A stretch of DNA of 37,187 bases from Promethearchaeota archaeon. Lineage in GTDB: Archaea > Asgardarchaeota > Lokiarchaeia > Sigyniarchaeales > SOKP01. Under the pieces are notes generated by a model, which did not search any database, was not told where the DNA came from, and saw nothing but the letters and a program-made list of their open reading frames with translations. This document shows positions 25,074 to 30,742 of the stretch, in pieces. Numbering within the stretch: the stretch's first letter is position 1; each line of letters opens with the position of its first letter. The stretch spans positions 1 through 37,187 of the forward strand of contig JAEOTP010000051.1 in the NCBI GenBank assembly GCA_016839765.1, in the 5' to 3' direction. The position numbers were made by a program, and so were the translations under genes.

Positions 25074-25931
25074 TTAACTCAAAATTTTATTAAATTCACT
25101 TCCTATTATACCGGGATTTTCTCCAAGATATGAGTGGGGATTACAAAATAACAAATAAAAGTAAGGTTCAAACAAACCATCAATGCTCGGTCCTACGTCT
25201 GATTTGTATATATAAACCCACAATTGCTCGTTGGCATAATTAGCTTGTCGGTAAATCCAGTTTAAAGGAGAAATTTCAGGGATATTTCTAATACTTCTTA
25301 AAATTTCATGTACATCATCCAAATTATACTTTTTACTTAGTACGATAATTGGTGAGAGATCAAATGAGGTAATACATATTCCATTTAGACCATAATTTTT
25401 TAAATGTATTAAAAAATCGTTTCCCACACGATTAATTTTACTTTTGTGATGTTTCACACGATTCCTTGCTTCAGCATCACTTAAAATATCAATTATTATC
25501 TGCTCTTCAGCAGGTAAAATTTCCATAGATGAACTCAGAGGGATTTTATCGGTGATGATGGATTTGTAAATTAAATTAATTTTTTCGAAAACGGATTTAT
25601 GAAATAAATATCTTTCTGTTTGAGCAGTAATTAATACATTTCCACTATATTTAGATTCTCTTTTTTCCATATTAATTTCATTACTAGAATCAAATTCAAG
25701 GAGCTTAATATTCTTATTCATACTGTGTGCGAATTTAAATAATGCAGAAACTAATCCTGCATGCAACTCAAATGAATTAGCGTGATCAAAATTATCTTCA
25801 TGCTCAATAGCTTCTTTTGAGAAATCAAAAAACCTTAGATACAATTTAATTCCTTTTGGTAAATCTTTCAAAACTAAATGGTAATATGGAAATCCGTAGC
25901 TGCTTATAACTGAAAACTTGTAAATCGTCAC
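25074..25931 (-). CDS. Hypothetical protein with longin-like N-terminal and roadblock/profilin-like C-terminal domain
   Basis: IYKFSVISSYGFPYY beta-hairpin, LHAGLVSALFKFAHSM helix; second unit GLNGICITSFDLSPIIV. Confidence 0.6.
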   Translation of the reverse strand: MTIYKFSVISSYGFPYYHLVLKDLPKGIKLYLRFFDFSKEAIEHEDNFDHANSFELHAGLVSALFKFAHSMNKNIKLLEFDSSNEINMEKRESKYSGNVLITAQTERYLFHKSVFEKINLIYKSIITDKIPLSSSMEILPAEEQIIIDILSDAEARNRVKHHKSKINRVGNDFLIHLKNYGLNGICITSFDLSPIIVLSKKYNLDDVHEILRSIRNIPEISPLNWIYRQANYANEQLWVYIYKSDVGPSIDGLFEPYFYLLFCNPHSYLGENPGIIGSEFNKILS

Positions 25932-27738: not shown

Positions 27739-29862
27739 TTAGTATAAACTTGGAATAATGATACGTTTATAAATTAATGAGTTAATGGCATCAAAAATTA
27801 GGTCTTTATTTTCTTCGCTGATGATATTAACTAATTCTTCCAAATAAAAATGATGATTATCTTTAGAGATTGAATGTATCACATTAATAATACGCATTTC
27901 AATTTTTGGTATATTGTTTTCTCTTTTAAGTTTAGAGATATTTATTCTATCGGAACATAATTTGAAAGGTTCTTTATAAAAAAGTTTTAGATGATCACTT
28001 AATACTGAAGGGATTATTTGATTGAAATTATCTAAAGAGCCATCAAATTCTTCTAATTGATCACTAATTTTAAGATTTAAACTTGAAGTTAAATCAACAA
28101 TTTTCTGTTTTAATCTCTGAGATGCTTTTTCTTTTAGAATTAGAATAATTCTGATGTTATTTTTATCACTAACTAGACAGTTAAAATATTTAAAGTCAAA
28201 TTCAAGTAACTTTTTTATATCATAGGGCGCAGCTGAAGCCTCAGAATAATATTTATTATCCTTTTCATCAGTTATTTCTTTCGCCATTGCCGTTAAAGCT
28301 TGAATAAAACCGGGAAATAATATTTGTTTTTCTTTTTTTAACATTGAATAGCTCTTATAAAAAATTGGGATTCCACTATTATTTTGAACGATTAAAATGG
28401 CTTGAATATTTATTGAATCTTTGAATTTTTGTATCCTCGATTGCAAATTGAAACCTCTTTTTTTCTTTCTCGGGATTATGACATGTGTTCTTAAGCTTAA
28501 ACTAGAAAGAATTGCGATAATTACAAAAGAACCAATTAAGATTATCATAATCAAGGTGTATGAGGGAGATATATCTTCATAAGAAATTAGTAATGATACA
28601 TTATCAATTGAAATAGTGATTTTTTTATCTAATACGAATTCATCTGCCAAAAAAATTTGAAAAGAGACCGATATATTTACTTCTTTTAATATTAATGCTG
28701 TAACATCAAAACCATCTAATCCTATTTCTTGAAAAGATGTATTAAATGAAATTAATCGTATTTTTCTCTCATATAGAAAATCATTTATAAAAATTCTTAA
28801 TTCAGAGTTCAGAGAGCGGCTTTCCGGCCAAATTTGATTGATTTTATAATCGAAATTTAAAATAGCACTTGTAATTTCGATATTATCTCCGGTTACTTTA
28901 TTACCTATTTGATTCCAAGATATATAAGTTAACTGGTCTATCTTTTTCTCATAACTAAATGTAAAATTTACAGATTTAATCAGTAATTCATGAAATTCAT
29001 CATTATCATATGTTCCAGAATTATCTGCGGTGTATATTCTAATTCCTAATGTAATTGTAAAATTAAAATAATTTGTACTAAGTACAGAGGTTAAAAAATA
29101 AATCAGGTCATCTTCAGGATAAGATATTAAATATGAATTCGGTAAAGTATCGTCTCCAGGTGGATTGCCTTGCCCTAAATCAGTTGGTTGAAGATACGCC
29201 ATTTCATATACCTTACCTTTTGGTAGATCAGATACTAAGACATAGAATCTAACATAGTCATAGGATTCTTGTTGATCTAAATCATCTCCAGGACAATCAA
29301 CATCTAGATCGACTGTTGCGTTTACGACTACTTGAATTGATGCAGATTTTATTACGTAATCAGACATATCTACAGACGTGGTAATATTTCTGTCCCAATG
29401 GACGCTTGGATTTTGATTTGCATTCTCATCATCAAAAAGATGATATACTTTCAATCCTTCTGAGTCTGAAAAATTGCTACTGGGGCCCTGTGGAAAATCT
29501 GGATTTGGAATAGCCACCCAATTTGAACCTATCGGTGGTGTTTCTACCAATGAAAATGTTCTTTGCTCACCTAAAATTTCAAAATTCCCTTGTCCTGATT
29601 TAATAGATGCGTTTACATCTGTAGGATCTCCTCCAGATAACTTAAACCATGAATTTGTAGGATTATCGAAAGAAGGATTTGAAATCCACTCTTTATTAAA
29701 TTCTTCATAAGTGCTATGGGTTTTTAAATTAGCAGAATCAAAGAAATTCCCTTTATTAATATCAAATAAAGTATTGATATTTGAAATCGTAAATAGAAAT
29801 TTGCCACAAAAGCACAAACTTAAAATTATAAATATTGAAACATAACTTAGTTTCTTATACAT
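27739..29862 (-). CDS. Single-pass membrane protein: large ectodomain, TM, cytoplasmic longin-like domain and C-terminal winged-helix-like segment
   Basis: Likely start MYKK (29862; ORF open to 29910); N-terminal signal/anchor; beta-rich ectodomain with many NxS/T sequons; TM near 28493-28560 then PRKKKR; NIQAILIVQNNSGIPIFYKSY...LFPGFIQALTAMAKEI. Confidence 0.8.
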   Translation of the reverse strand: MYKKLSYVSIFIILSLCFCGKFLFTISNINTLFDINKGNFFDSANLKTHSTYEEFNKEWISNPSFDNPTNSWFKLSGGDPTDVNASIKSGQGNFEILGEQRTFSLVETPPIGSNWVAIPNPDFPQGPSSNFSDSEGLKVYHLFDDENANQNPSVHWDRNITTSVDMSDYVIKSASIQVVVNATVDLDVDCPGDDLDQQESYDYVRFYVLVSDLPKGKVYEMAYLQPTDLGQGNPPGDDTLPNSYLISYPEDDLIYFLTSVLSTNYFNFTITLGIRIYTADNSGTYDNDEFHELLIKSVNFTFSYEKKIDQLTYISWNQIGNKVTGDNIEITSAILNFDYKINQIWPESRSLNSELRIFINDFLYERKIRLISFNTSFQEIGLDGFDVTALILKEVNISVSFQIFLADEFVLDKKITISIDNVSLLISYEDISPSYTLIMIILIGSFVIIAILSSLSLRTHVIIPRKKKRGFNLQSRIQKFKDSINIQAILIVQNNSGIPIFYKSYSMLKKEKQILFPGFIQALTAMAKEITDEKDNKYYSEASAAPYDIKKLLEFDFKYFNCLVSDKNNIRIILILKEKASQRLKQKIVDLTSSLNLKISDQLEEFDGSLDNFNQIIPSVLSDHLKLFYKEPFKLCSDRINISKLKRENNIPKIEMRIINVIHSISKDNHHFYLEELVNIISEENKDLIFDAINSLIYKRIIIPSLY

Positions 29863-30136
29863 TCTCATAATATCAGAATTAAAATATCTAATCCTTAACT
29901 TTATTAGCAAATATACAATAAAAGTTTTCTAATATATATATTTTCAAATATTTAGTTTTTCAGAATAAACCACTTTATATTAACCAAAATTTTTCGATTA
30001 CTACTCTATAATAATACTGATCTTCCTACGATAAGCAACTCAAACCTTTTTTAAATTGGAATGTGTTATACAATTTTAAAATTCTGTTATTATCAAAACC
30101 TTTAAAAACTTTAGCACTATAGTTTACTAGGATAAG

Positions 30137-30166
30137 AGATTTTACCTAAAATCTTTATTTTAGGTA
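30137..30166. promoter_or_regulatory. Overlapping inverted repeats upstream of the GTPase
   Basis: TACCTAAAAT-CTTT-ATTTTAGGTA (30143-30166) and AGATTTTA-CC-TAAAATCT (30137-30154). Confidence 0.45.
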
Positions 30167-30193
30167 TAAGAATAAGTTTTGAGATATAATTAG

Positions 30194-30742
30194 ATGTTCC
30201 TATCAAAAACAGATCTTGCATATAAGATATGTTTATTTGGAAATAAGCAAGTTGGTAAATCTTCTTTAGTCAATCGGTTTGTAGATGGACGATTTGAATT
30301 TGATTTAAAACCGACTATAGGTGCGGCTATTTTTGTAAAAACTATTGAACTTTATAATAAGGTGATCAAACTTCAAATATGGGATTTTGGGGGTGAAGAA
30401 AGGTTCCATTTTCTTTTGAAATCATATGCCTATGGATCCTTTGGAGGAATTTTCATGTTTGATTTAACCAATGCTCATAGTTTAAATGAGATTTACGATT
30501 GGATTTCTATATTTCGGGGTTCATTGGATTATAACTTCAAAAAAGCTCCAATTTTATTAGTAGGAGGAAAATCGGATTTGGAAAATCAAAGAATCTTTGA
30601 TAGTGATGAAATAAAATCTTACCTAACTTCCTTAAATTTGTTCGATTATATTGAGTGTTCATCTAAAACAGGAGAGCATGTAAATTTTGTATTTGAAACA
30701 ATAGTATCTAAGATTATAGAAACATTTACTGATAAAAAATAA
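30194..30742 (+). CDS. Rab-like small GTPase (Ras superfamily)
   Basis: G1 GNKQVGKS, PTIG, KLQIWDFGGEERF, G4 GGKSD, G5 CSSK. Confidence 0.93.
   Translation: MFLSKTDLAYKICLFGNKQVGKSSLVNRFVDGRFEFDLKPTIGAAIFVKTIELYNKVIKLQIWDFGGEERFHFLLKSYAYGSFGGIFMFDLTNAHSLNEIYDWISIFRGSLDYNFKKAPILLVGGKSDLENQRIFDSDEIKSYLTSLNLFDYIECSSKTGEHVNFVFETIVSKIIETFTDKK

Follow-up and report, generated by a model that had tools for sequence, protein, structure and literature searches.

A surface-protein gene on the (-) strand of Asgard archaeal DNA, divergent from a small GTPase gene, is best explained as encoding a type-I surface protein with an ectodomain like a carbohydrate-binding module (CBM) and a cytoplasmic docking cassette of Asgard type, made up of a longin domain and a winged helix; in this explanation, to which a probability of about three in four is given, the adjacency to the GTPase gene is incidental. 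The window, that is, the whole stretch of DNA analysed, comprises 37,187 nucleotides (positions 1 to 37,187 of contig JAEOTP010000051.1, assembly GCA_016839765.1) from a Promethearchaeota archaeon of the lineage Lokiarchaeia, Sigyniarchaeales, SOKP01. The pair of jelly-roll domains outside the cell would recognise a surface ligand such as a glycan; on the cytoplasmic side, the transmembrane (TM) helix is continued by a strongly basic juxtamembrane helix and then by the longin plus winged-helix-like cassette of 250 residues. The cassette would act as a membrane-proximal platform for docking or oligomerisation, through which varied surface proteins may be coupled to a soluble cytoplasmic partner encoded elsewhere, a small GTPase being one candidate.

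The eukaryotic signature proteins (ESPs) of Asgard archaea include longin domains, and the usual view of these is as soluble regulators of small GTPases. In the present family, which is large, Asgard-specific and unannotated, the longin fold is instead built into membrane proteins on the cytoplasmic side, following surface ectodomains of many different kinds, and identification of the partner would show how Asgard cells connect their surface to their interior. In cultured Lokiarchaea there is no surface layer (S-layer), and many complex surface proteins are present (PMC9834061).

Membrane Topology and Fold of the Cytoplasmic Domain

In the program-made list of open reading frames (ORFs), the minus-strand frame spans 27739-29910, and the most likely start codon of the gene is the ATG at 29868 (MRMYKKL...), giving 709 amino acids (aa), because this length and N-terminus agree with those of a 709-aa, 97%-identical metagenomic homologue (P0002). 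The residues of the protein are counted below from MYKKL (707 aa), and tail residues 1-250 are residues 458-707 of the protein. A scan for hydropathy and sequons found nine N-x-S/T sequons in ectodomain residues 28-434 and one strong TM segment only, at 435-457, followed by RTHVIIPRKKKRG and then by 250 cytoplasmic residues; the protein is probably N-glycosylated. The initial annotation, made from the letters of the sequence, had already proposed a protein of about 700 aa with an anchor, a sequon-rich ectodomain, one TM helix and a basic stop-transfer, and the ORF and the hydropathy scan bear this out. Profile scans of the whole surface protein matched no family of Pfam or NCBIfam.

The AlphaFold2 (AF2) model of the tail, built from an alignment of 32 homologous sequences, is confident, with a mean predicted local distance difference test score (pLDDT) of 84.3 and a predicted template modelling score (pTM) of 0.80. 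According to DSSP, it contains strands at 29-36 and 42-47, a helix at 59-80, strands at 95-99, 104-110 and 113-119, and helices at 125-147 and 154-168, that is to say, the order b1 b2 a1 b3 b4 b5 a2 a3, preceded by the juxtamembrane helix 8-28, which runs on from the TM helix. The first three of these elements are the beta-beta-alpha segment quoted in the initial annotation, whose description of a longin-like cytoplasmic domain was likewise upheld by structure prediction and a Foldseek run, the top matches all belonging to the longin/roadblock superfamily. In the 32-sequence alignment, the juxtamembrane motifs P-R-K-R-K-K and T-Q-x-F-K-D are conserved, and the median net charge of this segment in the family is +5.

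In an exhaustive structural search independent of Foldseek, the longin/roadblock superfamily fills all but the last of 50 places. The best match is the longin of Sec22b (1ifq, Z 12.8, 125 of 127 residues, root-mean-square deviation 2.9), followed by the first longin of Fuzzy (9rs8, Z 12.0), 4afi (Z 11.4) and 2j3w (Z 11.2); VAMP7, AP sigma, Ykt6, COPI zeta, the TRAPP subunits Bet5, Trs23 and sedlin, and Mon1-Ccz1 are matched as well, and so is 8yqg (Z 11.2), a longin structure from a Lokiarchaeal Roadblock-Longin protein. Inspection of the hits that Foldseek itself had given led to the same assignment. These longin alignments begin at tail residue 23-29 and end at 169-177, covering about 120-139 residues with Z 10-12.8, at sequence identities of 7-16%. 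Foldseek gives a probability of 1.00 and an E of about 1e-4 to Ragulator, MglB and an Asgard roadblock protein, and in the structural search roadblock structures reach Z 8-10.5 over only 94-111 residues, stopping near residue 136-157. The tail is called a longin rather than a roadblock because longins align through both C-terminal helices and roadblocks over fewer residues. In summary, the modelled cytoplasmic domain has the longin fold, at the level of the fold superfamily.

Sequence profiles are silent on this relationship. None of the Pfam longin families (Longin, Sybindin, Sedlin_N, Clat_adaptor_s, Intu_longin_1) is matched by the query above threshold, and among the 32 tail homologues searched against Pfam at E<=1 the only longin match is one weak Intu_longin_1 (E 0.032), every matched family being confined to at most two members. 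Robl_LC7 is absent from the Pfam families listed for the query and the 32 homologues. A search of PDB sequences with the tail profile stayed at chance level, with a best E of 0.0013 to a designed protein. The NPR2 and NPR3 families are absent from the Pfam families listed for the 32 members, and NPRL chains from the top 50 structural matches, though a relation to the NPRL2/NPRL3-like longins (GATOR1) may exist.

The longins of eukaryotes and Asgard archaea (SNARE, AP sigma, COPI zeta, TRAPP, Fuzzy-Inturned and Mon1-Ccz1, 8yqg) share with the tail the fold and the order of strands and helices, but they differ in that the tail follows a TM helix at the cytoplasmic C-terminal end of its protein and is itself followed by a winged-helix-like domain. 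In the SNAREs Sec22, Ykt6 and VAMP7, the longin is N-terminal on a tail-anchored protein and is succeeded by the SNARE motif, whereas the order here is ectodomain, TM helix, longin and winged helix. The other longins are soluble subunits of complexes, and the present one is membrane-anchored. Membership among the SNARE longins was rejected, since the domain order differs and a Synaptobrevin match in Pfam is absent from the surface protein.

The C-Terminal End of the Tail

The last 70 or so residues of the tail look like a winged helix in the model. AF2 places helices at 185-190, 196-212, 217-223 and 229-241 and then a strand at 245-247, with a pLDDT of about 90, and the sole structural match of this end is 6ec8 (Z 7.7, over residues 172-250). 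The Atlas matches to the tail are unnamed Asgard clusters only, and the neighbour clusters in the Atlas carry HTH_47 (11%) and TrmB (52%). The third helix of this domain is acidic in most members (isoelectric point (pI) 4.2 in the query, median net charge -1 in the family), and the whole domain is near neutral in charge.

Such a C-terminal domain, together with the TrmB and HTH_47 clusters, would suit a membrane-tethered one-component transcription regulator, in which the ectodomain senses a ligand and the winged helix binds DNA in the manner of ToxR or CadC. The acidic third helix, which would have to be the recognition helix, argues against DNA binding by the tail end, and on this ground a tethered DNA-binding regulator was set aside. 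Moreover, a helix-turn-helix (HTH) family occurs in none of the 32 members among the 25 Pfam families listed, and nine paralogues per genome with giant ectodomains would be atypical of such a regulator; this role is thus extremely unlikely.

Distribution of the Tail

The whole protein, used as query in a word-indexed search, has 153 relatives, and the named hits are Asgard (with the labels Promethearchaeota, Hod-, Heimdall-, Thor-, Loki- and Hermodarchaeota) except one, P0103, a partial record labelled Candidatus Neomarinimicrobiota bacterium. When HMMER was run with the tail only, 277 representative clusters passed E<=1e-3, the proteins ranging from 63 to 2275 aa. The tail lies at most 30 residues from the C-terminus in 114 of 128 fetched family proteins, and a TM-like segment stands directly before it in every one of the 122 that have enough upstream sequence.

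Ectodomain and tail are separable. The same ectodomain is found with short or different tails in proteins of 540-590 aa and about 750 aa, and it is tandemly duplicated in further Asgard proteins, of about 1170-1200 aa; other members bearing the tail have Ig-like ectodomains, matched in Pfam by Big_1, MG2 and Filamin. On this evidence, the tail is an Asgard-specific cytoplasmic cassette common to many receptor-like surface proteins, which have 230-2275 aa. Published Asgard longins are soluble or are fused to GTPases, TRAPPC3, Vps28-C or two-component domains, and a description of a TM-anchored longin plus winged-helix architecture was not found in the searchable literature. That is to say, Asgard longin proteins as such are known, and what is new in this one is the architecture, with a membrane anchor and a winged-helix-like end.

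The source genome holds nine paralogues of the tail. Three of them stand in tandem on one contig of the same genome (C83:11278-19341; L006, L008 and L010), in frames of 757-770 aa with 27-29% identity, and this contig yielded no small GTPase.

The occurrence of the same tail on many unrelated ectodomains is what would be expected of a shared handling signal, and the tail may accordingly be pictured as a signal for sorting or assembly that engages a coat, ESCRT or the cytoskeleton, or that clusters the proteins by dimerisation, independently of any GTPase. The top structural matches, being the longins of SNAREs and adaptor complexes, point the same way, as does the acidic third helix, which is more typical of winged helices in protein-protein contacts (ESCRT-II) than of DNA binders. 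Against such a signal, traffic between internal membranes is not known from Asgard archaea. Internal membranes have not been seen in these archaea (PMC10933270). Genes for coats, ESCRT or actin were not recognised among the recurrent neighbours inspected, for which annotation covered a few of the clusters. On balance, this role of the tail is rather unlikely.

Fold of the Ectodomain

The AF2 model of the ectodomain, built from 41 homologues, is all-beta (pLDDT 88.6, pTM 0.80). Its structural matches are CBM4-2 (4bj0, Z 11.9), CBM16, CBM61 and reelin repeats, with 2zew (Z 11.1) and 2xom (Z 10.9) among the matched entries, together with the MAM domain of RPTPmu (Z 10.8) and the ligand-binding domain (LBD) of EphA3 (Z 9.6). 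A second sandwich, at about residues 73-278, matches Cry11Aa (Z 9.1) and peanut lectin (1ciw, Z 8.9), and the alignment ranges suggest that one sandwich is inserted within the other. Foldseek agrees loosely with the jelly-roll assignment, and the identity to the structural matches is 6-18%, a level at which no binding motif of a particular family is assignable.

In the model, the ectodomain belongs to the jelly-roll beta-sandwich class of the CBM, lectin and MAM type; jelly rolls often reach such Z values, which establish the fold class and not the ligand. Binding of a glycan or another surface ligand would be in keeping with this class. Eukaryotic type-I receptors (the MAM domain of RPTPmu, the LBD of Eph) and bacterial CBMs match the ectodomain in fold, and the receptors share with the surface protein the logic of an ectodomain, a single TM helix and a folded cytoplasmic domain; the resemblance is one of fold only, for the sequences are unrelated and the surface protein has neither a kinase nor a phosphatase domain.

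The Neighbouring GTPase and the Question of Linkage

The gene at 30194-30742 encodes, by its profile matches, a Ras-superfamily small GTPase (Pfam Ras PF00071, E 4.2e-38 over residues 11-175; Roc, 2e-23; Arf, 1e-10; TIGR00231). Its G1 (GNKQVGKS), switch I Thr, G3 (DFGG) and G5 (SSK) motifs are intact, the catalytic Gln of switch II is replaced by Glu (WDFGGEE), and G4 is GKSD and not NKxD; the C-terminus (...ETFTDKK) lacks a Cys prenylation motif. The RabF2 motif KLQIWD is present and the remaining RabF positions are partly kept. The name "Rab-like" given to it earlier is therefore fair in view of the Ras match and RabF2, but membership of the Rab family proper is not shown, the Cys being absent and the RabF set incomplete. 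Group 1 Rup GTPases of bacteria likewise lack the G3 Gln (PMC4316618).

The initial annotation had joined the two genes into a candidate receptor-longin-Rab signalling module. In such a dedicated two-gene module, a shared divergent promoter would co-regulate the genes, and the longin tail would bind, recruit or regulate this very GTPase. Several features invite the idea: the genes are divergent neighbours separated by 325 bp (29869-30193), in agreement with the divergent region of about 330 bp originally noted; the longins of TRAPP, Mon1-Ccz1, Fuzzy-Inturned and SRX-SRbeta contact small GTPases; and a GTPase with Glu for the catalytic Gln and without a lipid-anchor Cys could need a partner for targeting and hydrolysis. 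A scan of the region for sigma-70 promoters and terminators, ill-suited to archaea, gave results at the level of shuffled sequence.

Comparison with relatives removes most of this ground. The contigs of the relatives of 90-97% identity measure only 2.4-2.6 kb. In the closest relative with enough contig (L012, 76% identity), four unrelated genes (L012:2094-4947), encoding a ferritin, a 190-aa ORF, a short-chain dehydrogenase and a metallo-beta-lactamase, separate the GTPase from the receptor gene, though the remaining synteny is retained: EamA-GTPase on one side, with EamA as the convergent neighbour of the GTPase, and GyrI-like, HAD and a 285-aa ORF on the other. The intergenic region of 325 bp is thus not conserved, and an insertion or deletion distinguishes the close relatives. 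In the flanks (up to 8 kb) of four relatives of 46-53% identity, no Ras, Arf or Roc-family gene is found among the genes called, the contig of one of them (L003) stopping shortly beyond the gene. Within genomes of the same genus, GTPase and receptor have their best matches on separate contigs.

The same picture was obtained from the wider family. A loci search with nine closer tail sequences, keeping one genome per species, gave 77 tail-encoding loci, and in none of them is a GTPase adjacent to the tail gene, the nearest being 2.9 kb off; their flanks (1.01 Mb) contain 9 GTPase genes, where 14.6 would be expected at the density of the source genome (48 small-GTPase loci per 3.32 Mb). Conversely, of 80 metagenomic loci collected around relatives of the GTPase, 2 contain a tail gene, compared with about 1.2 expected. 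At one of the two, L117 (136-5311), a tail protein of 1339 aa (-) and a GTPase with 49% identity to that of the window (+) form a divergent pair with a gap of 616 bp, which speaks for the module; the roughly 160 loci examined show no further pair of this kind. At the other, L114, the tail gene and a GTPase relative are convergent with one gene between them. A blastp search with the GTPase found no fusion in 266 fetched family proteins, and the nine family proteins that extend beyond the tail show only Ig-like domains in Pfam and no GTPase.

In the source genome, the chance that a GTPase is the immediate neighbour of a given gene is about 0.027, and the chance of at least one such adjacency among nine tail paralogues is about 0.22; with 48 GTPase genes in the genome, the adjacency is real but unremarkable. 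Judged from the compared loci, the divergent adjacency is a lineage-specific rearrangement and gives no evidence for a dedicated receptor-GTPase pair. The module proposed earlier is therefore not sustained by conserved linkage, and a dedicated pair is very unlikely; homologues unlinked to GTPase genes were a result that the initial annotation had itself named as refuting, and this is the result obtained. As a caution for similar cases, a longin gene beside a GTPase gene is not in itself evidence of a module where a genome holds about 48 GTPase genes.

Established pairs offer the same contrast. In MglB-MglA, Ragulator-Rag and the actinobacterial conservon, a roadblock domain is paired with a Ras-superfamily GTPase, as a longin gene stands beside one in the window, and the tail matches MglB with Z 9.0-9.4 and LAMTOR with Z 8.6-10.3; however, the pairing in those systems is conserved or biochemically shown, whereas that in the window is not conserved, and the tail domain carries the pair of C-terminal helices known from longins. 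An Asgard operon with a LAMTOR1-like protein, a Rab-like GTPase and a DENN protein has been described (Liu et al., bioRxiv 10.1101/2020.10.19.343400). The neighbourhood of bacterial Group 1 Rup GTPases has been proposed to be a membrane signalling system (Wuichet and Sogaard-Andersen 2014, PMC4316618), but of its four conserved genes, which include those for a coiled-coil protein, an OmpA-linked membrane protein and a signalling output enzyme, none is seen in the window.

Docking Role of the Cassette

It has been reported that Asgard GTPase genes are generally unclustered with genes for their presumed roadblock or longin regulators (PMC10933270), and the missing linkage therefore leaves room for a functional interaction in trans. 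On this basis, the tail could be a general membrane platform, that is, a recruiter or a scaffold for guanine nucleotide exchange factors (GEFs) or GTPase-activating proteins (GAPs), which would serve one or more of the roughly 48 GTPases without a lipid anchor from unlinked genes, perhaps as a longin homo- or heterodimer. The strong fold matches to the GTPase-binding longins of Fuzzy, Bet5/Trs23 and Mon1-Ccz1 and the obligately membrane-proximal position of the tail favour a platform of this kind; on the other side, the best matches include the non-regulators Sec22b, VAMP7, Ykt6, AP sigma and COPI zeta, neither a fusion nor a neighbourhood signal appeared at any level tested, and there is no residue diagnostic of GEF or GAP longins to check. 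Such a general platform is possible, though it is considered unlikely. The more specific proposal that TM-anchored tails bring Ras/Rab-like GTPases without a lipid anchor to the membrane in trans, and so couple them to surface events, is doubtful; if true, membrane targeting before eukaryotes would have had a route other than prenylation, and the longin-based Rab and Rag platforms an early precursor. More broadly, the tail family could bear on the origin of membrane-associated GTPase platforms, and the window itself adds no evidence on mechanism.

The explanation preferred here, a CBM-like surface protein with a longin plus winged-helix docking cassette, has to be held against several points. 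The winged-helix call comes from a single weak structural match and the topology of the model, and the docking role is deduced from the fold and architecture by themselves. The longin fold serves GEF and GAP platforms of GTPases, SNARE regulation and coat adaptors, so the mechanism is not fixed by the fold. In addition, 58 of the 77 tail loci are one syntenic orthologue group, so the independent contexts are fewer than the count implies, and the missing gene linkage is weak negative evidence in that related Asgard ESP genes are rarely clustered.

Coordinates and Other Neighbourhoods

Table 1. Features of the surface-protein gene and its surroundings in the window (protein and tail residues numbered as in the text).
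Feature	Position	Strand	Basis
Surface-protein gene, 709 aa, type-I single-pass	27739..29868	(-)	Start codon ATG at 29868; stop codon at 27739-27741
Hydrophobic N-terminus (signal peptide or anchor), residues 5-27	29782..29850	(-)	Kyte-Doolittle 19-residue window >1.6
Ectodomain, residues 28-434, two predicted jelly-roll beta-sandwiches, 9 sequons	28561..29781	(-)	AF2 and structural search
Single transmembrane helix, residues 435-457	28492..28560	(-)	Hydropathy maximum 2.87
Juxtamembrane part of the tail with helix (residues 1-28), basic, pI 12	28408..28491	(-)	AF2 helix 8-28
Predicted longin-fold domain, tail residues 29-174	27970..28407	(-)	AF2 secondary structure and structural matches
Winged-helix-like C-terminal domain, tail residues 180-250	27742..27954	(-)	AF2 and one structural match
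AT-rich divergent intergenic region, 325 bp	29869..30193	no strand	Read directly
Neighbouring Ras/Rab-like small GTPase, 182 aa	30194..30742	(+)	Pfam; adjacent only, one shared system not established

The 285-aa ORF at 25074-25931, which the initial annotation had flagged as longin-like, is syntenic in L012 (9453-10310) and is placed by the Atlas among unnamed Asgard clusters; it has no Pfam family and no detectable relation to the tail profile (hhalign probability 0.1).

An FGGY sugar kinase gene stands beside three of the four relatives of 46-53% identity, the fourth (P0011) having a different gene context, and in a genome scan beside 8 of 10 tail proteins of about 725-766 aa (35-41% tail identity). 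A class-III aminotransferase gene is also found beside most of these kinase-flanked relatives, and a sugar kinase, an aminotransferase or both stand beside 12 of the 14 more distant relatives of about 700-760 aa examined. This neighbourhood appears to be the older context of the gene. At L002, L003, L013 and L076-L089, which come from several Asgard lineages, the gene lies mostly between a divergent FGGY kinase gene and a downstream class-III aminotransferase gene, a synteny with metabolic genes that is conserved.

A different arrangement is seen at the 58 of the 77 loci (within L015-L090) that form the syntenic orthologue group, where a tail protein of 1100-1850 aa is followed downstream, at a median gap of 45 bp, by a small Cys-rich gene. 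The product of this gene has about 203-209 aa in the three loci listed (for example, L022:10801-11421), and its pattern of CxxCxxCC and CxxxxxxxC resembles YkgJ/UPF0153. Beyond the Cys-rich gene, on the opposite strand, lies a conserved gene for a protein of about 520-590 aa.

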